A DNA stretch of 38,544 bases from Actinomycetota bacterium (GCA_040755895.1 JBFMAG010000134.1:1-38544); one strand, 5' to 3'; counted from the stretch's first letter, positions 7,171-28,074 are shown. Numbers and translations: made by a program. Notes: generated by a model not told the origin, from the sequence alone.

Positions 7171-7892
7171 CGGTCAACGACTAAAAGTGCTATGGTTAAA
7201 ACCATCATCACAAGAAGGAAAACGTAATCATTTCTCCGAAATTTTATTTCCTTCAGCGTAGTTCTCTTATATGGAGCTCCAAATCCCCTTGTTTCCGTAG
7301 CCGCAGCCAGCTCATCAGATATTTTGATGGAGCGAATGGTTATTGGAATTATGATCCCTCTATAGTAACTTCCTGGCTGCTTTAGGATATCTCTCGCACA
7401 TAGTTTCAGCCCCTTCAGCCTCAATGAATCCAATATCGACGTAACTTCCTCCATAAGGGTGGGGACAAATCTTATGGTTGTAGTGAATATAAAAGTTATC
7501 GATGAAGGAACTTTCATTTTTTCCAGGGCTTTGGCTAAATCATTGGGTGAGGTGGTAAGGGCAAATAGCAATCCTGCACTGGTCATAGCGTACATCTTCA
7601 TACAAAATCTTCCTATGTAGGTCCAATCTTTGGTGAATATAAATCCAAAAATGGCAAGGATAACACCAATGAACCCAAATAATATCAGAAATCTTCTGGC
7701 CTCTTTAAATGTTTTGGAAAAATACAGACCGAATAGCAGAACAATAATTAGGATAATCAAGCACACGATGCTATCCACTACGAGACTGAGTATGGTGATT
7801 AAAAAGACCAAGCCCATTTTGGTTCTGGGATCCAATCCATGAATGGACGATTTCTTTGCCAAGAATCTCCCAAATTTGGATGTGGGTAGCAT
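7149..7892 (-). CDS. ECF transporter transmembrane (T) component, EcfT/CbiQ family
   Basis: I take the start at the ATG at 7892 (MLPTSKFGRFLAKKSSIHGLDPRTK...), 2 nt after the upstream stop. The protein is polytopic with the usual EcfT layout. The longer track ORF (to 8087) would overlap the S-component gene. Confidence 0.8.
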   Translation of the reverse strand: MLPTSKFGRFLAKKSSIHGLDPRTKMGLVFLITILSLVVDSIVCLIILIIVLLFGLYFSKTFKEARRFLILFGFIGVILAIFGFIFTKDWTYIGRFCMKMYAMTSAGLLFALTTSPNDLAKALEKMKVPSSITFIFTTTIRFVPTLMEEVTSILDSLRLKGLKLCARDILKQPGSYYRGIIIPITIRSIKISDELAAATETRGFGAPYKRTTLKEIKFRRNDYVFLLVMMVLTIALLVVDRWRVLIP

Positions 7893-7894
7893 CT

Positions 7895-8440
7895 TTATTG
7901 GATCACCCCAGCTTTTTTCAGCTCCCCTGATATGCTTGTTCCAATATACCCACCGGCGGCTCCCAAGATGGAGCAAACAGCAGAGATTGCAAGGATAACA
8001 AAAGGATTCATTATAGCTCTTGGAAAGCCGAAAAGTATCATCAAAATGAAAATGATCAAAGTTCCAGCAAAAACTTTGTTTGCACAAGCCAAGATGATCA
8101 ATTTCCTACTTGAGTAATCACCACGGAGGAGTTTCGTGATTATATCTCCGAATATCCCACCAATGGCCGATGAAGGGAATAAAATTGGCACAGCAGGGGA
8201 TATAAAACCATGGAAAAGCCCGGTTGTTATTCCGATGAGACTCAATGTTCCAACCTTTTTAACCTTAGCAAGTCCTATGGCGATCACGATGCTGCCAAAA
8301 AATCCCGCGGTCATTGATTTAAGACCGGGTGCACCTGGAGCGATTGCCGCTGCGGTCATATTCACCACCCAAACCACCACGATGGTCATCACACATATCA
8401 TGCCAATGAAGACAAGTTCTCTTCGGTCAAAATATTCCAT
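7895..8440 (-). CDS. Putative ECF substrate-binding (S) component, specificity unknown
   Basis: About 181 aa from the ATG at 8440, with AAAGGAGATG upstream. It has about 6 hydrophobic helices and sits directly upstream of EcfT/EcfAA'. It does not begin like CbiM/NikM. It may belong to the MptD/Trep_Strep-type S-component family, which I cannot verify. Confidence 0.5.
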   Translation of the reverse strand: MEYFDRRELVFIGMICVMTIVVVWVVNMTAAAIAPGAPGLKSMTAGFFGSIVIAIGLAKVKKVGTLSLIGITTGLFHGFISPAVPILFPSSAIGGIFGDIITKLLRGDYSSRKLIILACANKVFAGTLIIFILMILFGFPRAIMNPFVILAISAVCSILGAAGGYIGTSISGELKKAGVIQ

Positions 8441-8545
8441 GACATCATCTCCTTTCGGAAAAATAAAAGACCACAAAGATTCCCCGGTTTTCAAACCGAT
8501 TTTGAGACCTTCGTAGTCCCATTAGAAAAATTAATTTAGAACTGC

Positions 8546-11500
8546 TTATAGCTTCTCTTCTATCCAACCTTCGATTTCCAAGTATGCCCCCTTTAATTTC
8601 TCAATTTGTTCATCGGTGGCATCCCAGTAACCTCGCTTGTTCGCCTCAAGCAACCTGTTGACTATTTCTGCGGTGGCGAAGCGGTTATTTTCCGCCATTC
8701 GTTTTCGCATTTCCTCATCGAAGATATAGCGTTCAGCGATCCCACTCCATATCCAGTTGTCCACACGATTGGTGGTCGCCGCCAAGCCCAGTACATATTC
8801 CACTCTGTCCGCAATCTTCTGAGCACCGTGGAAGTCGTGTTTCAACATCCCATCGATCCACTTTGGATTGAGAAGTCTGGCTCTCACCCCTCTCTCAATG
8901 GCATCCTCCACATTCTCGGTTTTTATAATCTCTTTTGTGGTGTCGGAGATGAGCATCTCCGGTTTTTTGCCACTTGTGGTTTCAACTGCCTTGGACAGTC
9001 CTCCAAAGAACTCGTAGTAATGGTCGAGCTCTATTATCTCGTATTCATGCGTGTCTCTTACCTGGGAGACCAATTCCACCTTTGAGAGCATCGCCTTTAA
9101 AACCTTTTCCGCTTCAACAGCGTGAAGATTATAACCGTAAGCATGTTTCATGCTTGAGATGTACACCTTACCTATGGTCTTCTCCTCCTTCCAGTTCGAC
9201 GTCTCAATGAGATTGGTCACCCTTGTGGCATACTGGGCGGCGCTCGGTCCATAGATTCTAGCATTTGCCATTTTCTCCCTATGCTCAACTCCAGGCTCAA
9301 TCTCCTCTAGGATTTCCGTGGAGTGTTTCTTAACATAATTCATATTCTCGCTCTCATCTAAGGATGCAACCAGGTTGAAGGCCTCATCCAACAACTTGAT
9401 AACATTCGGGAATGTGTCTCTGAAGATGCCGCAGATGGTCACCAGGACATCTATTCGGGGACGACCCAGTTCCTCAAGGGGGATAACTTTTAATCTCTTA
9501 TCCCAAACTGAGCCAATTGGTCTCACGCCGATGTATCTCAGTATCTGACCGATTGTTTCGCCTCTGGTCTTCATGGTCTCAAAGCCCCAAAGGACTACCC
9601 CTACGCTCTCCGGATATCCGTGAATATGACGATACCGTTTAAGCGTATTTTCGGCTATCTCTGAGCCACGCTCATAAGCAGCATCGCTGGGGACCATCCG
9701 GGGATCGAATTGAAAGGTATTGCTACCCGTGGGAAGAACATCGGGGGTGCGTATGGGATCTCCCCCAATGTTTGGATAAGTATACCTCCCTTCCAAGGCG
9801 TGGATGAGACCTCCAAGCTCATCTCCCCTCCTATAGTCCTCGATGACTTTCAGCCCAAACTTCAAAGTTTTCTCAAGCTCAAAGGTTAGATCCTTCGATA
9901 CTTCAACCGACTTCAAAGCATCATTCAGCGATTCAAACAGTACCTTCCTCGCGAGATCTCTTGCCTTGGATTCGATATCCTCCAAAATTTGGGCATATGT
10001 CTTTCCCCCCAAAGACTCGCCAGGATTCTTCATCGCCCAATCATAATTTATACCTTGAGATTCAAGGAGTATCCGATGGAGTGATTTAATCTCCCCCCTA
10101 TCGTAACGAAGAATGAAGGTGAGGAACTCAACCAATCCATCGTCATCGTATTTTTCGCCCATTATATGCAAGCCCTTAGGGATAATGGATCGTTTAATCT
10201 CAAATATTTCACTGTGAATTTCCTCTATGGATTCGCTCCGGAAATTCAGTTCTTTGGTAACTTTGAGGATTTGCTCCTCGACCCTCTGAGCTCTGAGCGG
10301 ATCTTGAACCCTCGCCTCATTATATTCGGCGATCAAATCATCCAGTTTCGAAAGTTCATCGTAGAGACTGGAAGAGGTAAATGTGGGAGTCATGTGATTA
10401 ACGATGGTGGCGTAACTTCTCCTCTTGGCGATGGTTGCCTCCGAGGAGTTGGTAACCCAATAGATATAAATATGGGGCAGATTCCCAATCAAGTTATCGG
10501 GAAAGCATTCCCGGGAGAGCCCAATCTCTTTCCCAGCGGTGAATTCCAGAGTTCCGTGAGTACCCACGTGAACAACGGCATCAGCTTTGAATTCGTTCTC
10601 TAACCACTTATAGAAGGCAATATACTGGTGATGTGGTGCCAGAGCTTTATCGTGATACGCCTTCTCAGGATTCTCATGAACACCCCTGGATGGTTGAATG
10701 CCCACAAAGATATTTCCGAATTCGATGCCCGGGATGAGTAGCCTACCATTGTGGACCATCACATTTCCCGGGGGAGAACCCCAGTCACGGATCACCGATT
10801 CTTTGATGCTTTCGGGAAGCTCATCAAACCATTTGGAATACGTGGGGCGATCAATATTTATGAGATTGGCTATCAACTTTTTCTGAGCAATCCATTTGCC
10901 AGAGTTTACTACCGACTGCTCTAAAAATAGTTCATGTAAGGATTTTTCCGGCAAGTCACCCACACTATAACCTTCCTTTTTTAATCTCTGTAATATCCTT
11001 TTCATGCTTTCAAATACATCGAGATAAGCGGCACTGCCCAGATTGTCTTCACCCGGTGGATAATTGAATATGATGAAGGCAATCCTCTTATTGGAATTCC
11101 TTTTTCCGTGAAGCTTCACCCAATTCAAAACTCTTTGCGCCATTCTTTCAATGCGATCATCAATGGGCAGAATGGTCTTCACTCTGCCTTCGATATTCCG
11201 GTCGTATCCGACCTCAGCGAGACCACTCGATGGTATTGGCTCAATAATTCCATCGAGTTCAGGAAGGGTAACGGCGGTGACGACCTCCAGGGGGGATAGA
11301 CCGATCTCTGAAGCTTTCCACTTTTGAATCTCCCGCATGAGCATGGGTGTGCCGTCAAAGACGGGTACATCGAGGTTCTGCAGAGTATCTAAAGTGACCT
11401 GTGGATCTCCACCGAGAGGTCCTCCATTAAGTCTAAACCATCGAAAGCTGACCACGGCATCGACGATGGGTTTCCCATTCTTGTAGAAAAACTCCTTGAT

Positions 11501-12319
11501 ATCCTTGCAACCTTCCATGGAACTTGAAAAAGTTGGAATGATATTGGCGTAGGGTTTTAGCTTTTCCATGAGGGCCTTGATGCCCACATAGCACTCCTCA
11601 AGATGCATGCCTCCGAAAGAAAGCATTCCCACGGTATATGGTTTCTCGAGTTTATGATCCCGTAGATAAGCATCCAAGGTACCATAAAACTTTTGTTCAA
11701 AGGGATCGTAGATTCCCTCTTCGGGATACTCTATTGGAGGATTGAGTTTAACCTTGACCCTATTTTTTCCGTAATTTTTAACGATGAAAAGCAATAGGTT
11801 CTTTATATTCTCCGTTCCGCCATTGCTCCAGTATTTCATGGCAATTATCCAATTTCTGGCGTGCTTTAAGAAACCGAGGGGAAGAATTTTGCCCATCTTA
11901 TCGATCATGTTCGAGATTTTCTGAATCTTTTTATAATCAATGCCGGTGGTTTTCCTGCGTTGCATGATCTTATCCATGGAGAATGACCCCATCCTGGTGA
12001 GGCTCAATACGTACTCCGATCCTCCACAGAGCACGATCACGGTATTCTTTGTACTGGAGAGTGTCTCGGAAACAATCTTTGAGGGACGCCCTCCGCCCCT
12101 AATGTCGATGAGCACGATATCCGCGTTCTGTAGATTCTTCCCTAAGGTGCTATCCTCCACTAATTCTTCTTCAATCTCGTGCCAGTTGTATAGCCTCACT
12201 TTGATGATGTCCCCATATTCTTCCCTGATCTGTTGCAGGGCTTCGGATATCCACTTCGACATGGAAGTCGACGTAAGTATCGCCGTGATCCTTGTGGGCA
12301 CCAGTTCAGGCAATTTCAT
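8546..12319 (-). CDS. cobN: CobN-family class-I chelatase large subunit
   Basis: About 1257 aa from the ATG at 12319, with a GGGAGG SD (the track ORF begins 2 codons earlier at TTG). Size and blocks are typical of CobN/BchH: HHQYIAFYKWL, VHVGTHGTLEFTAGKE, GDPIRTPDVLPTGSN and RPRIDVLVTICGIFRD. Confidence 0.9.
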   Translation of the reverse strand: MKLPELVPTRITAILTSTSMSKWISEALQQIREEYGDIIKVRLYNWHEIEEELVEDSTLGKNLQNADIVLIDIRGGGRPSKIVSETLSSTKNTVIVLCGGSEYVLSLTRMGSFSMDKIMQRRKTTGIDYKKIQKISNMIDKMGKILPLGFLKHARNWIIAMKYWSNGGTENIKNLLLFIVKNYGKNRVKVKLNPPIEYPEEGIYDPFEQKFYGTLDAYLRDHKLEKPYTVGMLSFGGMHLEECYVGIKALMEKLKPYANIIPTFSSSMEGCKDIKEFFYKNGKPIVDAVVSFRWFRLNGGPLGGDPQVTLDTLQNLDVPVFDGTPMLMREIQKWKASEIGLSPLEVVTAVTLPELDGIIEPIPSSGLAEVGYDRNIEGRVKTILPIDDRIERMAQRVLNWVKLHGKRNSNKRIAFIIFNYPPGEDNLGSAAYLDVFESMKRILQRLKKEGYSVGDLPEKSLHELFLEQSVVNSGKWIAQKKLIANLINIDRPTYSKWFDELPESIKESVIRDWGSPPGNVMVHNGRLLIPGIEFGNIFVGIQPSRGVHENPEKAYHDKALAPHHQYIAFYKWLENEFKADAVVHVGTHGTLEFTAGKEIGLSRECFPDNLIGNLPHIYIYWVTNSSEATIAKRRSYATIVNHMTPTFTSSSLYDELSKLDDLIAEYNEARVQDPLRAQRVEEQILKVTKELNFRSESIEEIHSEIFEIKRSIIPKGLHIMGEKYDDDGLVEFLTFILRYDRGEIKSLHRILLESQGINYDWAMKNPGESLGGKTYAQILEDIESKARDLARKVLFESLNDALKSVEVSKDLTFELEKTLKFGLKVIEDYRRGDELGGLIHALEGRYTYPNIGGDPIRTPDVLPTGSNTFQFDPRMVPSDAAYERGSEIAENTLKRYRHIHGYPESVGVVLWGFETMKTRGETIGQILRYIGVRPIGSVWDKRLKVIPLEELGRPRIDVLVTICGIFRDTFPNVIKLLDEAFNLVASLDESENMNYVKKHSTEILEEIEPGVEHREKMANARIYGPSAAQYATRVTNLIETSNWKEEKTIGKVYISSMKHAYGYNLHAVEAEKVLKAMLSKVELVSQVRDTHEYEIIELDHYYEFFGGLSKAVETTSGKKPEMLISDTTKEIIKTENVEDAIERGVRARLLNPKWIDGMLKHDFHGAQKIADRVEYVLGLAATTNRVDNWIWSGIAERYIFDEEMRKRMAENNRFATAEIVNRLLEANKRGYWDATDEQIEKLKGAYLEIEGWIEEKL

Positions 12320-12357
12320 CACCAACCTCCCACGAAGTTCATGGTATTATCGCTTTC

Positions 12358-13458
12358 TCATCGAACATTTTTGCTAGCATCTGCAGATTGGTTGAAGTTG
12401 CGCGGATCAGGTGAGTGCTCGCCAATTAAGGTCCCTTCTAACCTCCCTTGATCTATGCCGAATTCTTCAAAGGGCTTGCGTCTCATCCGGTGAAGCAGAG
12501 CTAAATCGGCGCCTTCCCTCACGTCCTCCTCCGTGACTTGGGTGCGCCCGTGGAAAGCCGCGGTGGTCTTGGCAACTTTCATCATGGTGATATCTGCCCT
12601 GTGACCGTGAACCTTCATCTCAACGGCAATTTCGGCGATGAGTTTGAGCATCTCTTCCGAAATTTCCACTCCATCCAGAATCTTCTTGGCAGAGATGATC
12701 TTCTTTCTCAATTCCTCTTGAGCCCCCTCCCACTCAGAGGCAAAGGCTATGGGATCATCCTCATAACTGGAACGTCGCTTGACTACCTCTACCCTCAAAT
12801 CTGGGTCAGCGATTCCTTCAATTTTCACACACAGTCCAAAGCGATCCAGAAGCTGCGGTCTCAATTCTCCCTCCTCAGGGTTCATCGTTCCCACCAAGAT
12901 GAAGTGGGCTGGGTGGGAGTAGGATACACCCTCCCTTTCGACTGTATTCACTCCCATAGCCGCTGAATCCAGAAGGACATCGACGATGTGATCGTCGAGA
13001 AGATTGACCTCATCCACATAGAGTATTCCCCGATGAGCCTCAGCCAAAACTCCTGGCTCAAAGCGCTTCTCGCCTCGCTTTATAGCGTACTCTATATCAA
13101 GGGTGCCAACTACCCTATCCTCGGTGGCACTCACGGGCAGATCTATCACCCGCATCTTTCTGAGAATCGTCTCAAACTTTCCTCCGTGATTGAATCTCTC
13201 CAAACATCTTTCACACATCTCATTTTTATCACGCGGATTGCAACCGTAGGGACAATCCTTGACCACCTCAATTTCAGGAAGAAGATCAGCGAGGGCTCTT
13301 ACGGCGGTGGACTTTGCGGTGCCTTTCTCGCCACGTATCAGAACCCCGCCTATCTTGGGATTTATAGCGTTGAGGATCAGCGCCATTTTCATCTTCTCTT
13401 GACCAACGATCGCCGTAAATGGATAAATTACCTTCTCATAACAGGACATTATCCTCAC
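12358..13458 (-). CDS. ChlI/BchI-like AAA+ chelatase ATPase subunit
   Basis: 366-aa ORF. It has [21 protein letters not shown], a Walker A (GEKGTAKS), a Walker B ([10 protein letters not shown]) and [18 protein letters not shown]. There is a Cys4 insert (CPYGC...CERC). The start is GTG at 13458 or ATG at 13449. Confidence 0.9.
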
Positions 13459-13471
13459 CTTCTCCTTAAAG

Positions 13472-15472
13472 TTATTGGAGCATCTCTTTTATCACCTGTA
13501 CTATGCTTGAAGCTCTGAGATCCTCCAGTCTAAAGTATTGTCCACCCAGGGCTTGAGCCAACTCCTCAGCCAAACCAAAGTTTATGAATCCATTAGCTTC
13601 GGCGTCGATCACCAAACTTTTTACCCTCTCTTCGGTTCTAATCACCGAAGCCACTCTCAAAGCCTCGGTGAAGGGATCGTCCTCTCCGATGCTCACATTG
13701 GCTTTTCCATCGGTGATTACCACCAGCAGGGGTGAGATGTTTGGATCCTTTCGGAGGTGATTTTTTGCCACCTTATGAGCCAAAGCCAATCCACGGGAGA
13801 GAGGTGTCCTGCCACCCGTGGGTAGCTCTTCCAGCCTCTTTTGAGCTAACTCCACACTGCTGGTCGGAGGGAGCAAGATTTCAGCAGCGCTTTTTCTGAA
13901 AGTCACCATTCCCACCTTATCCCTTTTCTGATAGGCATCCAGTAGCAGGGATAAAATCGCCCCCTTGGCCTCGATCATTCTCCTGTTTGCACCCATGGAG
14001 CCACTGGCATCGACGACGAAGAGAAGGAAATTGCCTATCCTTTTTTCTCTGATCTTTTCCCGAATATCCTCCGTCTCAATGGCGATCGCCAGATCATTTC
14101 TCTTTCGTCTCAGCTGGTACGGTGCCGCCGCTCTCAAGGTAGCATCAAGAGCTATGTCGCCGCTCATTCTGACCTCGGTCGATTTAACATAGCGTCCCGA
14201 TTTTGATGCCGTCTTGGTGCGGCTCCTGCGTCCCGAGCCCCTCCGAAGGATTCCATCCCGTCCGTGCTCAATGCGGCGAACTGGGAATGGTTTTCCTACG
14301 GCGAATACAATTTCCTGGATGAGACGAGGGGAACCATCTTGGCTCTGGGGACGAGATGGTGGCTTCTTGTGCTCTCTCTGTTCCTTTTGTTCCTCTCTAT
14401 CCTCCTCTCTATCCTCCTCCCTCTCCTTCCGATTCTGCTCCTCACGATGAGGAGGCTCTGGTGGAGGTTGCTGCTTACGAAGTGGAGGAACCTCTCTCAT
14501 TCGATGGGGCAAAACCAACTCCGCCGCCTCGAAGATTTCTTCTTCCCCAACCTCATTTTGACTCTTTAGGGCGGCGATTGTCCGAGCGGTCATATCCATG
14601 ACGACATCGGCTCTGTGTCCAGCGACGCAATTTTCCAAACAGATGCGGGCTATGAGCTTAAGGGAATCGGAGGATATCATCACATCCTCTAATCTTTCTT
14701 GGGCGGCGAAGATTTGCTCCGTTAACCTCTTCTGCTCAGGTCTCCATTTCTCGATAAAGGCTTCTGGGTCCACATCATATTCCTCACGCCTCTTGATGAG
14801 CTCCACCCGTTGCTCTGGATCGCTTATCCCCTCGATCCTCACGCAGAGACCGAAGCGATCCAGAAGCTGCGGTCTCAATTCCCCCTCCTCGGGGTTCATC
14901 GTTCCCACCAGGATGAAGTGGGCGGGGTGGGAATAGGATACACCCTCCCTTTCGACTTCATTGATACCCATAGCCGCCGCGTCGAGTAGGACATCGACAA
15001 TGTGATCGTTAAGCAGGTTTACTTCGTCCACATAGATGATGCCTCTGTTTGCCAGAGCCAAGAGTCCGGGCTCAAAGCGCTTCCTGCCTTCCCTTATGGC
15101 GTATTCAAAGTCGATGCTTCCCACTACCCTATCCTCGGTGGCGCTCACCGGCAGTTCCACGACCCAAACTTTCCTCTTCCTGCTGGGCAAACTTTTGTCG
15201 AGAAAGATTCTTTCCTTACATTCGGGGCACACTTTGGAAAGATCATGTGGGTCACAGCTATAGGGACAGCCTTCGACGACTTCTATTTCGGGCAATAGAT
15301 CAGCGAGTCCCCGAACAGCGGTCGATTTGGCAGTTCCTTTATGACCTCTGATCAATACCCCGCCTATCTTGGGATTTATGGCGTTGAGGATCAGCGCCAT
15401 TTTCATCTTCTCTTGACCCACGATCGCCGTAAATGGATACACCGAGTCCCTAAAACAGCTCAAACCCTTCAC
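13472..15472 (-). CDS. ChlD/BchD-like chelatase subunit (AAA+ module, Pro/acidic linker, vWA domain)
   Basis: 666-aa ORF with a GTG start. The N-terminal 330 aa are paralogous to the ChlI-like gene and retain Walker A (GHKGTAKS). The linker reads [37 protein letters not shown]. The C-terminal vWA/MIDAS region reads [12 protein letters not shown]...[10 protein letters not shown]. Confidence 0.9.
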
Positions 15473-15864: not shown

Positions 15865-15961
15865 TACTTCACTGTTTATATTCGACGGATATTTTAAATT
15901 TCCTTCTTAAAAATTGATATCTTTTGCTGTGTACTACTTATACAAATTTGTGGAATCCGGT

Positions 15962-16078
15962 TTACAACAGGCAGACATCTGTCCACTTACAGAGATGTTC
16001 CTTAAAAACTGCGGGAAATTGGGAAATGACCTCCCAAATTTTAGAGGCGGGTGTAACATTCGCGAATTTACCTGCCAT
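15962..16078 (-). pseudogene. Remnant copy of the last 38 codons of the ribokinase-like gene at 24060-24941
   Basis: Minus-strand translation is MAGKFANVTPASKIWEVISQFPAVFKEHLCKWTDVCLL*. The C-terminus of the 293-aa protein is MAGKFANVTPASKIWEVISQFPAVFKEYLCKWTGICLI*. There is no SD, and it starts 12 nt after the DUF2149-like stop. Confidence 0.6.
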
Positions 16079-16090
16079 GTCTACTTAAAT

Positions 16091-16426
16091 TTAAGGGCTG
16101 ACCAGGATTAGCTTGCCGGTCTTGGAATCTTTATATACTACTCCCATTTCCTCATATCCCTCACCGGTTCCTGATACCAGCGGTGGGGGAGTTTTAATTT
16201 CTTTCCCCTTCTCTATCTTGACTATCTTTTTAATTGCCTCCACCATTCTTCTTCTTTCTTCCAAAGAAGTATCTTTAAAAATCACATTCTGGAGATTCCA
16301 GGAGAGAACAAGCATTACAATTAAGCCACAAGCAAAGACCAGCATGGCATCTACCAGGTTAGCCACTCCCGACATAGGATTAATATCTTCTTCTAATCGG
16401 GGCAAAATCTTCCGCTTTCTTGCCAT
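16091..16426 (-). CDS. Small single-TM ExbD/TolR-like protein (DUF2149-like)
   Basis: 111-aa ORF with a GGAGGTG SD 9 nt upstream. The N-terminus (INPMSGVANLVDAMLVFACGLIVMLVL) resembles DUF2149 as I recall it. It overlaps the end of the MotA/ExbB-like gene by 47 nt. Confidence 0.6.
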   Translation of the reverse strand: MARKRKILPRLEEDINPMSGVANLVDAMLVFACGLIVMLVLSWNLQNVIFKDTSLEERRRMVEAIKKIVKIEKGKEIKTPPPLVSGTGEGYEEMGVVYKDSKTGKLILVSP

Positions 16427-17051
16427 TTTCCAACACCTCCAGTAAAGGATCTATCAAAGCTTCCAGGGTGCTTATGTGTTCTTCGTACCATCTTTTTCTA
16501 ATCTTAGAAATGGTATAGCCAATGCAACCTGCTGCCAATCCAACAATAGTAGTATCAAAAGCAATGATGACGGCTTGAGCCAAAGTGTGAACATCTCCTC
16601 TTCCCAATGCTGCAAGACCTGGACCCAAAGGAATTAGAGTTCCCATCAACCCCAAAGCAGGACCCCAGCGGGCAAGCATATCAGTCTTTTCAAGCGTTTG
16701 AGCTGCTTTGAGCTCTTCTTCCTCAATCAACTTTCGAGCCAAGGCATTTAGGGAATCATTGGTCAAATAGTTATGAGAGACTATTTTCTCCAGGATGTTT
16801 TTCTGATTTTGTGAAAGGGTGTTGGCAGAAATCGCTTCTCTTATCTCATTTGTGTTGTGCAGTTTCTTAATTATTTCTCCAATTTCTTCACTGCTTACTT
16901 TTGTTCTTTGTGAATATTCCGAAACTAGACTCCCTAACTCAATAACACCAAAAGTTATGCAGATAAGTAGCCCTATAATATCGGGGATGAGTAAGCTTTG
17001 TGAAATTAAATGTAAAGCCTTGCTTAAGAATTCACTTCCTGGAACAATCAT
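16380..17051 (-). CDS. MotA/TolQ/ExbB-family proton channel protein
   Basis: 223-aa ORF with a GGAGGAG SD. It has an N-terminal TM helix, a cytoplasmic helical region, and then the conserved channel segment ARWGPALGLMGTLIPLGPGLAAL...AFDTTIVGLAAG. Confidence 0.85.
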   Translation of the reverse strand: MIVPGSEFLSKALHLISQSLLIPDIIGLLICITFGVIELGSLVSEYSQRTKVSSEEIGEIIKKLHNTNEIREAISANTLSQNQKNILEKIVSHNYLTNDSLNALARKLIEEEELKAAQTLEKTDMLARWGPALGLMGTLIPLGPGLAALGRGDVHTLAQAVIIAFDTTIVGLAAGCIGYTISKIRKRWYEEHISTLEALIDPLLEVLENGKKAEDFAPIRRRY

Positions 17052-17101
17052 AAGAATCGCTCCTCCATTTCTTCAGAGTGACCCTGAGCATAGTCGAAGG
17101 G

Positions 17102-17803
17102 TCACCTCAATATACTTTTCTTTCTTGATTTATAAAAACCTAATACCCCCAGAAATATTACAAATACCACACCGGCTAGGGATGCTTTAATTGATGGGAT
17201 GGTCAAAGGGCTCATCTTAAACTTTTGTAAAGTTGGAATATTGGGCATGATTATAGCCGAAGCTAAAAAGTAAAAACCAACAAAAAGCATTAGGTTTCCT
17301 AAAAGAACAGGGTAGGGTTTCCTGGTCAATTTCACAATTCCTTCAGATAAAAGGTAAGTAGTAAGGATGGTTACTCCCAGGACAAGAGCGGTATACTTGC
17401 CTAAGATTGCTGAGGACACGCCAATAACCGGAGAGGCGAGACCAATTGTCAACAGAACCGAAGCATAACAACAGGGACAAGGAGCAGCAAGAGCCAGACA
17501 GCAAGTAGCTGCTTTATTTTTCCCGTGAACCTTCCACTCCCTGAGCGTATGGAGCCCGGCCCCAAATATAATTAGAGACATAATCATGAAGATAAGGTAA
17601 TTGTAGGTAGAAGCTAATTTATGAAGGAGATTTAAGTGCTTTGAGACCACAATTACCAGCCCCAACAAGGCTAGAGAATATATACACGTAATAAGAATAG
17701 CTATTCTCCTGGAAAGTCCGCTAAACCCCAGAGCAAGTCCTATTTTTATTCCAAAGATTATGGTGGCAGAGAGGATGCCTATCCTCCAAAGCATTGAAAT
17801 CAT
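17102..17803 (-). CDS. Polytopic membrane protein with intramembrane CC-x6-PCPCC motif (DUF2162-like predicted transporter)
   Basis: 233-aa ORF with about 6-7 hydrophobic helices. The motif is AATCCLALAAPCPCCYASV (17468-17503). A GAGGAGG SD is present. The DUF2162 assignment is from memory. Confidence 0.55.
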   Translation of the reverse strand: MISMLWRIGILSATIIFGIKIGLALGFSGLSRRIAILITCIYSLALLGLVIVVSKHLNLLHKLASTYNYLIFMIMSLIIFGAGLHTLREWKVHGKNKAATCCLALAAPCPCCYASVLLTIGLASPVIGVSSAILGKYTALVLGVTILTTYLLSEGIVKLTRKPYPVLLGNLMLFVGFYFLASAIIMPNIPTLQKFKMSPLTIPSIKASLAGVVFVIFLGVLGFYKSRKKSILR

Positions 17804-17812
17804 TGAGCTAGT

Positions 17813-20800
17813 CTACCTCCTCATAATCTTGGTCAAAAATGCCAGGATGCTTTCCTTAAAGTAACCCACGGACCCCAAGGCAACGAAGAGAAGAACACCA
17901 AAGATAGCAGCAAGGGGTATCCATCCCCTGCCAGCAGCGGGAGTTCCTACCCCAGCTTTCTTGACTTCATACGCTCTTTTTCTACCAGCGCTCGCTTCTG
18001 GTGAAGGCGTTTGGGCTTCACCTGGCGAGGGTGCTTCGGCTCGGGCAGGAGTTTCTCCTGCCAAAACAGATAGTGGGGCTTGAGCTGCATAAGTCCCGGG
18101 GGCTCTACCCGGTCTTGTCCCCGGCGAAGCTGATGGTTGCGCGGGCGTTTCGGAAGAAGTCTCCGCAACCAAAGGTTGCTCTACAATTCCCGGCGTTGAT
18201 GTTTCTGGAAGAGCTCCCGTGACGGGCAGTTGCTCTGGCTTTGGAAGTAAAGCCTCTAGCTGTTCCGGGGTGAGTATAGACTGTCCAGTAGCGGTCAAAA
18301 TAGCTTGGTGTAAAGTTAAAAGAAGATTTGAGTTAACAAAACTCGTTGCCCACTTCATCATAGCGATATTTCCACAACTACAGTCGCAGCAGCTTGGCCC
18401 GTGCTGAGCAATGAGACTCGCCCAGGTGTTAGCAATTTCTCTAAGAGTCGCTTCATCAGCTTGCCAGAATTCCTTTTGAGCAGCAGTGAGCAAAGTACCT
18501 GTGATACTGATCATGGCATAGGCATTGTTTCCTTGGGAGAGCCACTCGCTCACCCCGAGGTTGTATTTGTCTCTCACATAAACATCCGTTACCTCATTCC
18601 ACATCCAGTCTTGCACTAAGTTTGGATTTGTAACTTGCCACCCCCACAAATAAGCTACAAACTTATTGGATATGGTCCTGGCACCACTATAACCTTCACT
18701 CATCATTCCTTGAATCCACTCGGGATTGTAGTACCTTGTTCTCATCTCCCTAGTCATGAACTGCAACAATGAAGTAATTTCGGGATTCGCCGGATTGGCG
18801 TAGTAGAGGACATTCAGACTTGGCGCCGTTCCATTGACCATCTCGATAGCCATGGACAGTCCGCCGTAGTAATCATAATAGTCATCGTTGTCTAGTACGC
18901 CATAGAGATTAGTGCTCCTACTATGATAGGCAATGGTTACTCCCTGAAGTAAATCTTCAAATAAGTCTAGGTTAGTACTACCCCAACCGCGCTCGGTATA
19001 GGAATGGCTCATTCGGGTGAGATACACATCTGCCACTTGTTCTCGATTCTCCCAGGTCCACGATTGCTCTACCGCTTTGTGTACCCCAGCGCCGTAATCA
19101 CCCACGGGGGGAGCAAATATCCGTGTTATGGCCAGTTCTCCTGCATCGTTTGCTAAGATGCCTAGACCAATGAACTCATCGGCAAGTTCAATCCAGTGCT
19201 TGGCAATATAATTTTGCTCGATTGGGTCGGCTCCTTTGAAACCTGTGTATTTTGCATCTACTAAGGTTTTGAGTGTGTAGTCAAGACTATCTCTAAGATC
19301 CGGACGTGCTGCTACTATTGTGTTATAAGAAGCAGCCAGTGCAGCTCTGAAGGAACGATCCATGTTAATTAGAACCCTGGGAAATAGATCTCTGAATAGA
19401 CCACTTGTTGTGACCACCACGTCTATTCTTGGTCGCTCCGTTAGAGAAGAAAGCCCTTTAGAAGCTCTCATAGCATTAAGGTCAGATAAGAGCGTGCTCA
19501 GAGGAGTGGCTTTCATCTTATTTATCGCTCCAGCCGCAGTCCATGTTGGTTCTATACCCAATATCCTAAGGACAAAAGAGACCATAGTCCCGTCGTCCCT
19601 CGCTGTTTCAACACACCACACAACAGCCGCTATCTTCTCCGGTAGGCTCTCAAGTTGAGATAAAGCCATATCCGCGAGTTTCTTTCCAAGATTCCAGGCT
19701 ACTTTCGTTGGTAGAAGATTTTCTGAGATTCCATAAAAGTTTTTCCCTGTGGGTATTGCTCCCGGATTTCTTATTGGGTCGTTTCCAGTAGACGGAGTTA
19801 TATAACCGCCATTTAAGGCGTCGACAAGGGAGTTTAACTCTGAACTGAAGCTTGCTATTATTTTATCCGCGTAACCCTTTGCTTCATTTAGCTCCATTTG
19901 AAGTCGCGGATTAGAGGTTAAATCAGCTACAGTTTTTTGACCAGTTAATAACTGCAATACCCAATTTTGTGCCTGATTGTTCAACTTTTCTGCCTGGTCT
20001 AGGGTTAAATTATCAAAGTCCCAACCATTCTCCTGAGCTAAAAGCCTTTGCAAAGAAGGATTAGCAACTCCACCATCCGCCGAAACCATTGAAGTTGCCA
20101 GTAAGGCTATTTCTTCATCGGTCCATGATTTACCGAAGATATGCAAACCGTAAGGCATGAGGATCTGTTGTAGATTCATAAGGTATTCATGGAGTTTGTC
20201 TATGTCTTCATCTGTAATATTATTTGGATCTTCTATGCCCAAATCAGTACAGAGATTGAGCTCCCTTATCTTTTCTTTTATCTTGGTCTTATACTCTTCT
20301 TTCATGGGATTATCTGAAGGTGTTTTCTCGTAGTCATCGACGAGTCCTTTAAGCTCCACAAAACCTCCATAAAGGGTGGTTGTCTTAAGCGGCGGGGTTA
20401 GGTGATCTACTATAACCGCAAGACCTCTTCTCTTAGCTTGCAGCCCCTCCCCAACACCATCTACGATGTAGATGTACACTGAGGGGGTATCAGCTATCAT
20501 TATGTCCGAATAGTCAAAATCAGCCAGTGCGACTTGTTTTCTGGGAAGCCATTCGTAAGTAGCGTGCCTTCCCACATGTACTTGAGCATTAGCATCGAAC
20601 ACTTCATTTACCCAAGCATACCAAGCTAAATACTGATGAGGTGGTGGAACCACCGTACTGTGGTAGAACTTACTGGCATCTGCTTCCCATCCTCGCTGTG
20701 GCTCTGGACCTATGAAAATATTTCCGAAAAACATTCCAGGAATTACAATGTATTCTTTTCCATCTTTCTTAACTACCATCACATTTCCTGGGGGTTCTCC

Positions 20801-23116
20801 CCAGCCAGTAAGTCCTGGAATTGCCAGTGCTAAGAATGCGTTCTTTGCCTCGTAGAATGCATCCCAAGCATCTCCACCATCCATAATCCGTTTTAAGGTA
20901 GTGCTCATTTTATTTATCTGCTCAATGGCTTGCTGAGATTTTTCTGGATAAGTGTTGGCAAGATTTATCATCTCCTCGGTCCATTTTTCTATAGTCTTTA
21001 TGGCTGCAGCCTTTGCAGTTTCATCCGTTGTGCCATAAGTTGCCCCAAGTTTTACAATCTCCTCAATATATCCTACTGGTCCTTCCACAAGCTGCTTTTT
21101 TGCTATTGGGTCCAGATTTTCAAACCAGGCTATATACTCATCTGCATCCCAGAGAATCACATTGGGATTGTTTGCAAGTTCTTTAAGAATCCCTGGTGCC
21201 CAGTTGGCAATGTTGATTCCTCGTTCAATCATCATACTTACAAGTTCATCCACATTTTGCGGAATATTGCTTACGGTGTATCCCTCTTGCTTAAGCCTAT
21301 TAAGTATTTCTAGTATCGTGTCTGGAACCGCTAGATAGCTTGCCCCAATATTTTGTTTTCCCGGTGGGTAGTTGTAGTATACCAAGGCAATATTTTTATC
21401 TGCATTATCCATAATTCTTAATTGCACCCAGTTGTAGACCCTGTTTGCTAATCTCTCTATCCTCTCTGGAATTGCTTTGTAACGGACCAATTCAGCACCG
21501 GTTATCGGATCAATCCCTTTCTCCGTTGCACCCACAAATATAGGTTCCACTATTCCTTGAGTCTCGGGTATGGCAATTTGATAGTAAGTGTCGCTCCAGA
21601 GAAGTCCATCATCGGATGCTAACCATTCACCCTCGGTTCTTTTGGTTGAGGTCATTGCCCTGAAAACCGGCACGTTAATATTGGCTAAAAACTGATTTGT
21701 TTGGTCTACAAAGCCAGAGCCAAGTGAAAAGCAATAGAAGCTGATTAAAGCATCTATTCTGGATTTGTATTTGCCGGGGTTTCTCTCATACTCAGTAGTG
21801 GTAACTACGTGCCTAGGATTCTCAGGATCATAAGTGAAGAACTTCACCATCGCTGAATAGATATTTTGAGGTTGCGTTCCAATTGTCCCTGAATAAGCTC
21901 CAACTATGGGTATTACATTTACTCCTTTCTCTACAAGCTTGTCTATCATGGCTTGGAAGTGATCCATGTTGCCAGCGCGCATGGGAGAGGTCATCTCTAC
22001 AATGCCAACCGTGGGTTTTGAAGGATCAAGAGGATACTGAGCTAAATACTCATCCAAACTGGTAAAAATTTTTCCATCTCTGTAAAGCATTTCATTTGGC
22101 AGAGTTAAGGGTGGTGCTGGATCCCATACGGAGGGCCATATACCTCCATTAAGTTCGGTGTACTTTTTCAAAGCCCATTTAAATTGATTTTCATAGTTTA
22201 CTGTTCCACTTTGGGCAAAATATAACCCGACATCTATCCAATTACTGATCTGGGGATATTTTGTTTTATAGCCGTTTAGCCGCTCCGTGTTTGCATTTTT
22301 AAGATCATACAGAATTGTATTTTTCTTGCTCGTGTCACCAATCACGCTATCTGGAACTCCCTCAAAGAGGAGCCTTCCATCTATTTGGCATAACTTAGTC
22401 AATTCAAGGTAACTTTGTAGTACAAGGAATATTTTATTGGGCTTGTTTTTAGTAATATCTGGATTAGCATTTATGACGTTTTTGAAATTACTCAAGCCTG
22501 GCTCAAACATCCATTCGCAGATAACAATATCTGTATTTTTAATTAGACTTTTAAGCTCATCGGGACTTGTTTGACCAATTTGGGTGGTCGTGCGTATATC
22601 GAAATGTACCAACCAGGTTGACGGATCATCTGCTTTATAACCGAGTTGCGTTGGGTTTATGAGTCTCATGATGTTTTGTGCTGCATCATTAGTCATTTTT
22701 GTACTCGTGGAGGAGTGGATAATGAGAACTCTGGGGTCGACCAAATTGGTTTCAGGTTCATCTTCAGAAGATCCTTCAAGAGGAATGCTGCTTGCATCTT
22801 TGTTCTCTGTCATAAGCTCTTCGCCAGTTTCCGGTCCCTCAGGCCGCCGAGATTTTTCAGTATCATACTCGCTATCTTTAACCAAGTTTTTCTCATGCTT
22901 TGGATCGCCGCAAGAGGAGGAGTTTTGTGAGTGTCCTTCGCTTGCCTCGAGATCAGTAGGATTCGAGTTTTTATCAACTGCCTTGCTATTTGCGGATGCA
23001 GTAGCGGAACTTGCGTCTGTAGCTGATTCGCTCTCACTCACCAAATCCGAACTTGAGGGCAAATCTTGTGATTTGCAGTTTTGTATCTCCCCAGCAGTTT
23101 TATCTTCCTCACTCAT
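17813..23116 (-). CDS. Giant CobN-family protein with disordered N-terminal and membrane-anchored C-terminal extensions (HmuS-like)
   Basis: 1767-aa ORF. Blocks align with the CobN at 8546-12319: HQYLAWYAWV, VHVGRHATYEWLPRKQ, NDPIRNPGAIPTGKN and RPRIDVVVTTSGLFRD. The N-terminal ~130 aa are Ser/Asp/Glu-rich. The C-terminus has SCCDCSCGN, a Pro/Ala/Glu-rich linker and one TM helix (WIPLAAIFGVLLFVALGSVGYF). There is no SD before the ATG at 23116, which directly follows an in-frame TAG. Confidence 0.9.
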   Translation of the reverse strand: MSEEDKTAGEIQNCKSQDLPSSSDLVSESESATDASSATASANSKAVDKNSNPTDLEASEGHSQNSSSCGDPKHEKNLVKDSEYDTEKSRRPEGPETGEELMTENKDASSIPLEGSSEDEPETNLVDPRVLIIHSSTSTKMTNDAAQNIMRLINPTQLGYKADDPSTWLVHFDIRTTTQIGQTSPDELKSLIKNTDIVICEWMFEPGLSNFKNVINANPDITKNKPNKIFLVLQSYLELTKLCQIDGRLLFEGVPDSVIGDTSKKNTILYDLKNANTERLNGYKTKYPQISNWIDVGLYFAQSGTVNYENQFKWALKKYTELNGGIWPSVWDPAPPLTLPNEMLYRDGKIFTSLDEYLAQYPLDPSKPTVGIVEMTSPMRAGNMDHFQAMIDKLVEKGVNVIPIVGAYSGTIGTQPQNIYSAMVKFFTYDPENPRHVVTTTEYERNPGKYKSRIDALISFYCFSLGSGFVDQTNQFLANINVPVFRAMTSTKRTEGEWLASDDGLLWSDTYYQIAIPETQGIVEPIFVGATEKGIDPITGAELVRYKAIPERIERLANRVYNWVQLRIMDNADKNIALVYYNYPPGKQNIGASYLAVPDTILEILNRLKQEGYTVSNIPQNVDELVSMMIERGINIANWAPGILKELANNPNVILWDADEYIAWFENLDPIAKKQLVEGPVGYIEEIVKLGATYGTTDETAKAAAIKTIEKWTEEMINLANTYPEKSQQAIEQINKMSTTLKRIMDGGDAWDAFYEAKNAFLALAIPGLTGWGEPPGNVMVVKKDGKEYIVIPGMFFGNIFIGPEPQRGWEADASKFYHSTVVPPPHQYLAWYAWVNEVFDANAQVHVGRHATYEWLPRKQVALADFDYSDIMIADTPSVYIYIVDGVGEGLQAKRRGLAVIVDHLTPPLKTTTLYGGFVELKGLVDDYEKTPSDNPMKEEYKTKIKEKIRELNLCTDLGIEDPNNITDEDIDKLHEYLMNLQQILMPYGLHIFGKSWTDEEIALLATSMVSADGGVANPSLQRLLAQENGWDFDNLTLDQAEKLNNQAQNWVLQLLTGQKTVADLTSNPRLQMELNEAKGYADKIIASFSSELNSLVDALNGGYITPSTGNDPIRNPGAIPTGKNFYGISENLLPTKVAWNLGKKLADMALSQLESLPEKIAAVVWCVETARDDGTMVSFVLRILGIEPTWTAAGAINKMKATPLSTLLSDLNAMRASKGLSSLTERPRIDVVVTTSGLFRDLFPRVLINMDRSFRAALAASYNTIVAARPDLRDSLDYTLKTLVDAKYTGFKGADPIEQNYIAKHWIELADEFIGLGILANDAGELAITRIFAPPVGDYGAGVHKAVEQSWTWENREQVADVYLTRMSHSYTERGWGSTNLDLFEDLLQGVTIAYHSRSTNLYGVLDNDDYYDYYGGLSMAIEMVNGTAPSLNVLYYANPANPEITSLLQFMTREMRTRYYNPEWIQGMMSEGYSGARTISNKFVAYLWGWQVTNPNLVQDWMWNEVTDVYVRDKYNLGVSEWLSQGNNAYAMISITGTLLTAAQKEFWQADEATLREIANTWASLIAQHGPSCCDCSCGNIAMMKWATSFVNSNLLLTLHQAILTATGQSILTPEQLEALLPKPEQLPVTGALPETSTPGIVEQPLVAETSSETPAQPSASPGTRPGRAPGTYAAQAPLSVLAGETPARAEAPSPGEAQTPSPEASAGRKRAYEVKKAGVGTPAAGRGWIPLAAIFGVLLFVALGSVGYFKESILAFLTKIMRR

Positions 23117-23395
23117 CTATGCCTGATTAGATTCACTTGAAGATATACTCATTTCAGGAGTTGCTTCACCCGAGATAGTTTGATCTTGTGTCACCTGCTC
23201 GCCATTGCCTATCTGTCCGCCATTGGGCTCCCGTACGGGTGACAGACCCGCCATTGGGCTCCCGTACGGGTGACAGACGGCGGCTTCAGGCGCTGGCAGG
23301 CGGGCCTCTTCAGCTAACGCCTGACCGCAGAAAAGCAATCCCACCAAAAGAACTGCTGTTAGAAGAGAAAGTACCAATATTTTGTGCTTATTCAT
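23117..23395 (-). CDS. Small secreted protein, or the detached signal-peptide exon of the giant CobN-family ORF
   Basis: 92 aa from the ATG at 23395 (SD AGAGGATGGGG). It has a Sec signal (MNKHKILVLSLLTAVLLVGLLFCGQALA/EE). The Ser/Glu/Gln-rich tail ends at a TAG that abuts, in frame, the ATG of the 1767-aa ORF. Confidence 0.6.
   Translation of the reverse strand: MNKHKILVLSLLTAVLLVGLLFCGQALAEEARLPAPEAAVCHPYGSPMAGLSPVREPNGGQIGNGEQVTQDQTISGEATPEMSISSSESNQA
23217..23278. repeat. Perfect 31-bp tandem duplication inside the signal-peptide ORF
   Basis: CCGCCATTGGGCTCCCGTACGGGTGACAGAC occurs at 23217-23247 and again at 23248-23278. The two copies are translated in different frames (VCHPYGSPMAG, then LSPVREPNGG). 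Confidence 0.95.
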
Positions 23396-23423
23396 AATCA
23401 CCCCATCCTCTCTTAACGTAATT

Positions 23424-23581
23424 TGGTCAAAATAATTTTGTTTAGAAAATTTCTCAAACTTTCCGCTATGCTGGGGCAGGCAGAAGCCCCTTAAATCCCT
23501 GCCTGCCCGTAGCACCGCGGATCCAGAGGATATGAGGTGTCTGCCCTGCACCCCACGGACTGGCAAGACAAATAAAAACCA
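23424..23581 (-). promoter_or_regulatory. Copy 2 of the duplicated promoter/leader module (upstream of the CobN-giant/ExbB-like operon)
   Basis: It matches 15554-15713. On the minus strand it has TTGAGA (23457-23452), a 17-nt spacer and TATTTT (23434-23429). The GC dyad is GGGCAGGCAG (23474-23483) and CTGCCTGCCC (23499-23508). Confidence 0.5.
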
Positions 23582-23623
23582 CGAAAGCTCCGACCTTCGA
23601 GTCAGATCTAAAACCTTCGTGGT
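23572..23623 (-). terminator. Rho-independent terminator-like hairpin ending the YedF-YedE...His-rich operon
   Basis: Minus strand: ACCACGAA...TTCGTGGT stem followed by TTTTTATTT. Confidence 0.5.
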
Positions 23624-23851
23624 TCTAATTAGAGATATCTACCATTTAATTTATTTCAAACCGCAAAAACAAAAAACCACAAAAGTTATCTAGCTTCAGC
23701 TAGAACCCCCCCTCGTGATCTTTCTCTTTGTTATAAATTCGACATTATTTCGAAATATCCTTTTAAATCCCAAAAATTTTTTGCATATCCCTCCAATATC
23801 TGGGCTGTTTAAAATTTAAAACGTCCAGCATTCCTTTTACATACTCTTCAC

Positions 23852-27218: not shown

Positions 27219-27908
27219 CTAATCATAGGGGAGATCTATCCCTATCCTTTGAAAATCCTTTCTAATAAGTTCAAAGGCTTCGGATTTATTCTTCTTCATC
27301 AAGCTCACCGCATAATCACAATCGGGGTTTGTCTCAGAGATTTCAACTAGCTTGTCTCCCACTTGGAACTTGAGCCCCCTCCTCACCTCCAGCCAAACCT
27401 TCGCCTGAGCTTGGTAGCATTGGTATTCCTGAGATACGGAATCATCCTCGAAGAATGAATCCAGTTGGACATGTTTGCCCTCATGAGCAATAATAGCTGC
27501 TAAAACCGTCGTTGGTGCCTCCCTATAGCTATTGCTGATAACTATGGTGCCAGTCGTAACGAAGGGTATGGCTGATCTATACTCCGCCGCGGCAAAAGCT
27601 ATCTTAGGTTTACCGAAAATTATCCTTATCTTCCTTTTTTGTATGATCTCTGCAATCTCCCTTCCCGTCCTACTTCCCTTCAAAGCATTGAAACTTTCCC
27701 TTAATTTTCCATCTTTGATGGTTTCTCTAACCCAGCGATAATCAAGGTCGGTAAGGAAAGAAGTGGAGTGGGAAACCGGATTTAAATTGGAGGAGATACC
27801 GATTTGAACCGAGGGTTTAGTGGCGATGCTTATGTGAATGGTTTTAAACCAGGGTGATTGAGTAATCAGTAAAACAATGACAACGAAGAGTGCTAATTTC
27901 TTTAACAT
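27219..27908 (-). CDS. Secreted hypothetical protein with HExxH motif (putative metallopeptidase-like)
   Basis: 229-aa ORF with a signal/anchor (MLKKLALFVVIVLLITQSPW) and AAIIAHEGKHVQLD (HExxH). The GGAGGAGG SD is embedded in a hairpin. Confidence 0.6.
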   Translation of the reverse strand: MLKKLALFVVIVLLITQSPWFKTIHISIATKPSVQIGISSNLNPVSHSTSFLTDLDYRWVRETIKDGKLRESFNALKGSRTGREIAEIIQKRKIRIIFGKPKIAFAAAEYRSAIPFVTTGTIVISNSYREAPTTVLAAIIAHEGKHVQLDSFFEDDSVSQEYQCYQAQAKVWLEVRRGLKFQVGDKLVEISETNPDCDYAVSLMKKNKSEAFELIRKDFQRIGIDLPYD

Positions 27909-27994: not shown

Positions 27995-28074
27995 CAACTT
28001 CGGCAGCCCGGCTACCCCTTACGGGTCCGTGGCTTTGCGCCCCCCACTCTCGTGGGGTTTGCCTTTGTCGGTTG
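27995..28074 (-). promoter_or_regulatory. c-di-GMP-I (GEMM-I) riboswitch aptamer
   Basis: The minus-strand sequence is CAACCGACAAAGGCAAACC-CCAC-GAGA-GUGG-GGGGCGCAAAGCC-ACGGACCC-GUAA-GGGGUAGCCGGGCUGCC-GAAGUUG. It aligns by eye with the V. cholerae Vc2 aptamer (GGCAAACC...GAAA...GGGACGCAAAGCC). Both hairpins are GNRA-capped and P1 closes (GGCA/UGCC, CAAC/GUUG). Confidence 0.75.

Follow-up and report, generated by a model that had tools for sequence, protein, structure and literature searches.

Does a short open reading frame (ORF) that encodes a signal peptide, and the giant CobN-type ORF that follows it without a gap, represent two genes, one gene read through an amber codon, or one gene broken by it? 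And on which side of the membrane would the encoded chelatase work? The question is raised by the minus strand of a 38,544-nt contig from an Actinomycetota bacterium (GCA_040755895.1, JBFMAG010000134.1:1-38544), called here the window, meaning this whole stretch. Comparison with relatives indicates that both ORFs belong to one gene, which in this contig alone is interrupted by a single premature TAG. The explanation we favour is a recent, strain-specific nonsense mutation, to which we give roughly an even chance of being correct.

Read 5' to 3' on the minus strand, the junction is ...TCA AGT GAA TCT AAT CAG GCA TAG ATG AGT GAG GAA GAT AAA.... The upstream ORF (23395..23117) has 92 codons plus the TAG; its product begins with MNKHKILVLSLLTAVLLVGLLFCGQALA, followed by EE..., and it is preceded by a Shine-Dalgarno (SD)-like gagaggatgggg at about 23401-23412. 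The giant ORF (23116..17813) specifies 1767 aa and matches the Pfam family CobN-Mg_chel (PF02514) with an E-value of 2.6e-292. Both lie in a common frame with zero nt between them, and in the 1,860-codon frame running from 23395 to 17816 the TAG at 23119..23117 is the sole stop. A frameshift at the junction was ruled out, the remaining two frames being closed by many stops. An earlier note, made from the sequence alone, had pointed to this in-frame TAG-ATG arrangement, and the ATG (23116-23114) does directly follow the TAG. Its observation that the two sides share a Ser/Glu/Gln-rich low complexity also holds (tail ...GEATPEMSISSSESNQA, head MSEEDKTAGEIQNCKSQDLPSSSDLVSESES...). It was right that the giant ORF lacks an SD, in that GGAG, GAGG and AGGA were all absent from the 25 nt preceding its ATG, but it overstated the case in saying that nearly all other genes have one: by our count a clear SD precedes about 15 of the 28 other mechanically listed ORFs of the window. 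The locus is laid out as follows, with L-numbers denoting related loci to which the window was compared.

23396..23570 (minus): 5' leader, conserved and structured, containing the SD-like gagaggatgggg; from nucleotide identity to L004/L005 and predicted fold.
23312..23395 (minus): Sec-type signal peptide, start codon included, codons 1-28 (MNKHKILVLSLLTAVLLVGLLFCGQALA; cleavage motif A-L-A); from translation and hydrophobic residues 3-24.
23195..23305 (minus): in-frame, GC-rich insertion of 111 nt, ARLPAPEAAVCHPYGSPMAGLSPVREPNGGQIGNGEQ; from DNA alignment and Tandem Repeats Finder (TRF).
23120..23194 (minus): conserved motif VTQDQTISGEATPEMSISSSES that comes after the signal peptide, then the first diverged linker codons, NQA; from DNA alignment.
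23117..23119 (minus): in-frame amber TAG; from translation, lying opposite a Ser TCG codon of L004/L005 in protein and DNA alignments.
23114..23116 (minus): ATG abutting the TAG, mechanical start of the 1767-aa ORF, without an SD; from the ORF listing.
22748..23113 (minus): hypervariable, acidic and Ser-rich disordered linker, giant-ORF residues 2-123, up to the conserved NLVDPRVL; from frame analysis and alignments.
17924..22747 (minus): class I chelatase body of CobN/ChlH/HmuS type; from PF02514 (E 2.6e-292), best structure 9d26.
17858..17923 (minus): C-terminal transmembrane helix WIPLAAIFGVLLFVALGSVGYF, membrane anchor; the second of two hydrophobic segments in the fused protein, conserved in all homologues.
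17813..17815 (minus): the gene's own stop, TAG, where orthologues have TAA.
16091..17803 (minus): partner genes DUF2162 (17102-17803), MotA/ExbB-like (16380-17051) and DUF2149 (16091-16426); from Pfam.

Homologues were sought with the conceptually fused N-terminus as query, which yielded 27 close ones at 51-83% identity. The signal peptide or N-terminal hydrophobic segment is contiguous with the body in 27/27, and each encodes signal peptide, linker, CobN-like body and C-terminal helix in one uninterrupted ORF. Six of these proteins (P0002, P0003, P0005, P0009, P0027 and P0028) have the same signal peptide and motif (MNKRKILVLSLLTAILLIGLLFCSQVWAEE VTQDQTISGEATPE.SISSSES...) and continue into the body with no interruption. 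The closest named relative in the genome scan, Candidatus Subteraquimicrobium carltonvillense UBA2594 (Actinomycetota, class Ca. Aquicultoria), has the same signal peptide and an uninterrupted gene at its locus, L002. L002, L004 and L005 align with the window through the junction and have in common with it the 5' leader, the signal peptide and the VTQDQT...SISSSES motif. L004 and L005 also keep the window's gene order: multiheme cytochrome, TusA/sulfur-transport, selenium/sulfur-carrier, carbohydrate-kinase-like, small His-rich protein, CobN-like, DUF2162, MotA/ExbB and DUF2149, with Fur/FeoAB farther along. Since all 27 close homologues, the syntenic relatives included, are uninterrupted, the alignments place the fused state as ancestral and leave the window alone interrupted. 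The earlier note's proposal, that an amber codon splits what is a single gene, is upheld; a family consistently encoded as two genes, with an SD before the second, is clearly not what the orthologues present.

Three homologues (P0012, P0017 and P0021) seemingly lack a signal peptide, and recurrent splitting within the family was considered on that account and rejected by a DNA-level check. They have the signal peptide in frame with no in-frame stop, and at the start position an ATT after a strong GGAGGTGAAA SD, the gene callers having started farther downstream. As a separate observation, ATT stands in place of ATG at the start position of four methanogen-type homologues (L009:1438-1440, L010:1842-1844, L011:1887-1889 and L011:8717-8719), in each case 12 nt after the start of the GGAGGTGAAA SD and with an intact signal peptide next, so these proteins were truncated by gene callers. 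The recurrent AUU start suggests deliberately weak, or initiation factor 3-sensitive, initiation in this exported CobN family.

How old is the interruption? For the chelatase body, we counted codon changes confined to one lineage, at sites where the other three among the window, L004, L005 and L006 agree. In the window, 23 such changes are nonsynonymous and 111 synonymous (N/S 0.21); the figures are 12 and 53 (0.23) for L004, and 15 and 54 (0.28) for L005. By these counts the window lineage, like its relatives, has been under normal purifying selection for practically all of its independent history, which argues that the stop would be young relative to the lineage; it is very recent, or not real, or tolerated. 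The contig as a whole is neither degraded nor full of errors, given that the 15 other genes it has in common with L004/L005 all align at full length. The lesion is isolated.

TAG itself, judging from gene ends, serves as an ordinary stop in this lineage. It terminates 7 of the 29 ORFs in the window, 4 of the 19 called genes at L004 and 5 of the 22 at L005 (21-24%). The giant ORF ends ...KIMRR-TAG where L005 has ...RIMRR-TAA and L004 ...KIMKR-TAA, and TAG also closes a 229-aa gene at 27219-27908, both in the window and in its L004 and L005 counterparts. Such use of TAG in the window and its relatives, conserved termini included, rules out that UAG has been reassigned genome-wide; genome-wide UAG-to-pyrrolysine decoding has so far been described only in archaea (bioRxiv 10.64898/2026.05.24.727570). 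UAG is thus neither avoided nor ambiguous as a terminator in the window, L004 or L005. At the amber site the orthologues have TCG (Ser) or an unrelated linker, with no conserved in-frame UAG and no conserved Lys or pyrrolysine (Pyl). A downstream stimulatory RNA structure of the PYLIS type, which is not obligatory for the pyrrolysine family, was looked for in the 130 nt after the UAG, and these fold no better than shuffles (z = -0.25). There are no pyl genes, methylamine methyltransferase genes or tRNA genes in the 38.5-kb window, and no tRNA(CUA) in the seven related loci scanned (L001, L002 and L004-L008), where pyl genes were not systematically screened. PylRS genes have been reported in only two Actinobacteria genomes (PMC9630628). 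Our own search for PylS started from a profile of verified sequences, those of M. mazei and D. hafniense; the best 120 of its 3,754 matches were all Methanosarcina or Desulfitobacterium-like, and it was uninformative for Actinomycetota.

The TAG falls in the hypervariable linker. Nucleotide identity between the window and L004/L005 is 94-95% in the 5' leader, 81-83% in the signal peptide, 91-94% (L005 and L004, respectively) in the motif at 23129-23194, and 83% in the coding body. Similarity drops abruptly 9 nt before the TAG and resumes at NLVDPRVL, the alignable part of the linker in between being about 64-68% identical. The linker differs in length and sequence in every orthologue, and the sole open frame across that of the window is the ORF frame. 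Its distal part is recognisably homologous, with DSEYDTEKSRRPEG..TGEE corresponding to DSDSDTGTARLPSPEG..TGEE of the relatives. The amber lies opposite a Ser TCG codon of L004/L005, one base from TAG. Orthologue alignments reveal no conserved residue at the amber site in the linker, and therefore none requiring a special amino acid.

Two special origins for the stop were considered. That the linker is foreign DNA bringing its own stop-start finds no support, given the homology of its distal part and the failure of BLAST to find a donor. That its codons are unusually stop-prone was rejected, 4.4% of single substitutions creating a stop in the linker as against 4.6% in the body. Searches for other copies of the linker and junction returned nothing: metagenome contigs scanned for the exact pattern, NNN standing in for the amber, gave 0 matches, a linker peptide-pattern scan gave 346 pattern matches of which none was confirmed, a protein search with the signal-peptide ORF, X and the linker gave nothing at E <= 10, and an exact look-up of the giant protein found no record. 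On the opposite strand, a 155-aa antisense ORF (22659-23126, plus) lies exactly over the acidic linker, its end falling a little beyond the junction. Rather than a gene, it most likely reflects the GA-rich, low-complexity make-up of the coding strand.

The 111-nt insertion (23195-23305) immediately follows the cleavage site of the signal peptide, and DNA alignment shows no counterpart in L002, L004 or L005. It holds a perfect 2 x 31-nt tandem repeat at 23217-23278 (TRF: period 31, 2.0 copies, 100% match). The 31-nt unit contains the palindrome CCCGTACGGG. The insertion is in frame only because this unit occurs twice, each time in another reading frame; with a single unit the frame would be shifted. 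The period equals a common assembler k-mer size, and the copy number may accordingly be uncertain. The first 20 or so nt of the insertion weakly resemble the orthologues' distal linker module ARLPSPEG (E 0.016).

What was interrupted can be judged from the protein itself. Among solved structures it scores best against 9d26, the HmuS heme de-chelatase of Bacteroides thetaiotaomicron (E 1.4e-115, 390 bits), with a marginal lead over ChlH (358 bits) and CobN (354 bits). Hydrophobic segments number exactly two in the fused protein (residues 3-24 and 1822-1845), and as the contig stands the TAG severs the N-terminal one. Single N- and C-terminal helices flank the enzyme in the fused reading and in all orthologues, as HmuS, likewise a very large class I chelatase homologue, has single transmembrane helices at its N- and C-termini (PMC12583661). 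The neighbourhood is similar too. The P. gingivalis operon encodes HmuS (CobN-like), HmuT (hypothetical), HmuU (MotA/TolQ/ExbB) and HmuV (DUF2149) (PMC11681262), and the order in the window, CobN-like, small membrane protein DUF2162, MotA/ExbB, DUF2149, is like that of hmuSTUV in these Bacteroidota (B. thetaiotaomicron and P. gingivalis); DUF2162, MotA/ExbB and DUF2149 also follow the big CobN gene in L004, L005, L006 and L008. In the published HmuS model, heme is imported to the periplasm and the released iron taken up by FeoB (PMC12583661), which the nearby feoAB and fur of the window would fit.

The likeness has limits. The host is an uncultured relative of Aquicultoria within Actinomycetota, without the HmuY/HmuR outer-membrane parts, and in the family of the window protein, unlike in HmuS, the signal peptide is followed by a long linker that is acidic and disordered; the window's own copy of the gene is moreover interrupted by TAG. 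HmuS binds heme through Met-79 and His-254, and by a rough ungapped extrapolation from the alignment its His-Gly-Arg heme-ligand motif would fall on Gly-Ser-Gly here, which suggests that the motif is not conserved in the window protein. By analogy, the enzyme would be a class I (de)chelatase tethered to the membrane on its extracytoplasmic side and powered by an ExbB/ExbD-like motor. Because the fused protein, with one helix at each end, matches B. thetaiotaomicron HmuS, the signal peptide would be needed; with an extracytoplasmic working site it would be essential, and a product started at the ATG would face the cytoplasm, cut off from that site. In distant relatives, CooT-like nickel chaperone and nicotianamine-synthase-like genes flank the exported CobN operon (L008:9788-9976 and 17069-17665; L011:614-1423), which hints at a link to nickel or another metallophore and not necessarily to heme.

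Under a recent nonsense mutation, events may have run as follows. The ancestral gene would have made an exported, C-terminally anchored HmuS-like class I (de)chelatase, acting outside the cytoplasmic membrane with its DUF2162, ExbB-like and DUF2149 partners. A strain-specific substitution would then have turned one codon of the fast-evolving Ser/Glu linker into TAG. With TAG as an ordinary stop, the gene as written would yield a short secreted peptide, and reinitiation at the adjacent AUG would add at most a certain amount of chelatase that lacks the signal peptide and sits on the wrong side of the membrane. The gene would be newly inactivated or crippled, not recoded. It resembles the young pseudogenes and split genes of bacterial genomes and metagenome-assembled genomes in its single in-frame stop, collinear pieces, intact orthologues and freedom from other lesions; it differs from ordinary split genes in that a start codon abuts the stop and selection on the body is unrelaxed.

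Several points weigh against this explanation. (i) The chance of a start codon abutting a random in-frame stop, estimated from codon frequencies, is about 2% (ATG only) to 5% (ATG, GTG or TTG), so a plain nonsense mutation entails a coincidence, albeit a mild one. (ii) The DNA alignment around the TAG is only about 50% identical, which leaves the step from TCG to TAG plausible and not proven. (iii) The private in-frame insertion suggests that selection kept the frame from the signal peptide onward until a short time ago, as would equally be the case with an error or a tolerated stop. (iv) From one contig, mutation and consensus or base-call error are indistinguishable, and in the collections searched no second contig or protein has this version of the linker.

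The last point leads to the strongest alternative, a sequencing, consensus or assembly artefact, for which we would allow perhaps one chance in four. The true codon at 23117-23119 would then be a sense codon (TCG, CAG, GAG and AAG are each one base from TAG), or the contig consensus would have caught a minority allele; the gene would be intact and its product exported. Such an error fits the observations as well as a mutation does, and would account for a gene that is otherwise perfect, its 1,860-codon frame open and selection on its body as strong as in the relatives, in a family with all 27 homologues intact. It would also have struck a low-complexity region with a perfect repeat of 31-nt period, where short-k assemblies are least reliable, in what appears to be a single metagenomic contig, seen once (1 member, 1 contig). 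Yet the 15 neighbouring genes without a lesion speak against a generally error-prone contig; consensus substitution errors are rare, and a de Bruijn or overlap consensus requires reads containing the TAG.

A functional split is unlikely. Here the TAG-ATG would couple translation by termination-reinitiation (70S rescanning), giving a tail-anchored, cytoplasm-facing chelatase without a signal peptide, perhaps a partner of the extra cytoplasmic CobN/ChlI/ChlD set found only in the window. Zero spacing between stop and start supports reinitiation in coupled bacterial genes, and this is the geometry seen here, with UAG and AUG abutting and the second ORF lacking an SD. The adjacency, as estimated above, is improbable by chance, the body has been under purifying selection in the window lineage, and the ChlD/ChlI/CobN and CbiQ/ABC block at 5692-15472 is peculiar to the window. 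Against this, no orthologue is split; the DUF2162, ExbB-like and DUF2149 partners and the HmuS analogy imply an extracytoplasmic enzyme; the signal peptide is well preserved and its frame kept, needlessly for a mere coupling ORF; and a very recent stop explains the purifying selection equally well. Coupled pairs are two conserved genes, whereas the relatives have one, and the first "gene" here would consist of a signal peptide and linker only. The earlier note listed four mechanisms without choosing among them. Recent nonsense mutation and sequence error come out favoured, and programmed read-through and pyrrolysine decoding find no support; termination-reinitiation, which the note grouped with read-through, survives only as a possible consequence of the stop.

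The amber might also be tolerated or exploited, one mRNA yielding two products: a tail-anchored, cytoplasm-facing chelatase by reinitiation, and a little exported full-length enzyme by read-through, near-cognate or Pyl. We consider this highly improbable; were it true, an uncultured lineage of Actinomycetota would have in this amber a topological switch for its class I chelatase.

Amber recoding proper, whether by pyrrolysine or by programmed or suppressor-tRNA read-through to a full-length exported protein, we regard as very improbable: although the frame is open on both sides, as in Pyl genes of the mtmB/mtbB/mttB type, read-through would restore the ancestral product of the fused orthologues, near-cognate read-through of UAG occurs at a low level in any bacterium, and PylRS genes have the Actinobacteria precedent mentioned above, this UAG is neither conserved nor in a catalytic site, it sits in a hypervariable linker with no stable structure downstream, TAG is a frequent genuine stop that ends even this gene, and neither pyl genes nor methylamine methyltransferases nor tRNA(CUA) are visible where they were sought.

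Some other features of the window deserve mention. The 5' leader of the interrupted gene has a predicted fold with z = -4.68, and no Rfam match or known riboswitch was found in it. Over 23396-23640 (minus), and especially 23470-23570, it is conserved above the coding body, and its 5' half is conserved as far as L006, a more distant locus. The leader may be a regulatory RNA or an operator of this metal/tetrapyrrole operon. Elsewhere, a c-di-GMP-I-GGC riboswitch aptamer (27998-28072, minus; 75 bits, E 3e-16) lies upstream of the 229-aa protein at 27219-27908, which has no assigned family, just downstream of the gene for a 1322-aa multiheme cytochrome.

Between DUF2149 and DUF5667/Fur/FeoAB the window carries a block (5692-15472, minus) that is additional in comparison with L004:

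13472-15472 (minus): ChlD-like.
12358-13458 (minus): ChlI-like.
8546-12325 (minus): CobN of cytoplasmic type, 1259 aa.
7149-8087 (minus): CbiQ-like.
5692-7170 (minus): double ATP-binding cassette (ABC) ATPase.

This is a complete class I chelatase set together with a transporter of the energy-coupling factor (ECF) type. At its edge, a duplicate of about 130 nt (15950-16078, minus) repeats the 3' end of the carbohydrate-kinase-like gene. It covers aa 256-294, is 81-97% identical to L004/L005, and is probably the scar of a rearrangement.

Annotations should list the two ORFs as one disrupted gene, to be corrected if reads disagree, and not as a small secreted peptide plus a cytoplasmic CobN. The amber says nothing new about decoding unless it is both real and read through. 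The protein family is interesting in itself but already recognised. Its intact members appear to be exported proteins in which a signal peptide and a disordered linker precede an HmuS/CobN-type body with a C-terminal anchor, encoded with ExbB-like, DUF2149 and DUF2162 partners. With them, the hmuSTUV-type architecture, which was characterised only recently, would also include deep-subsurface Actinomycetota and methanogens.

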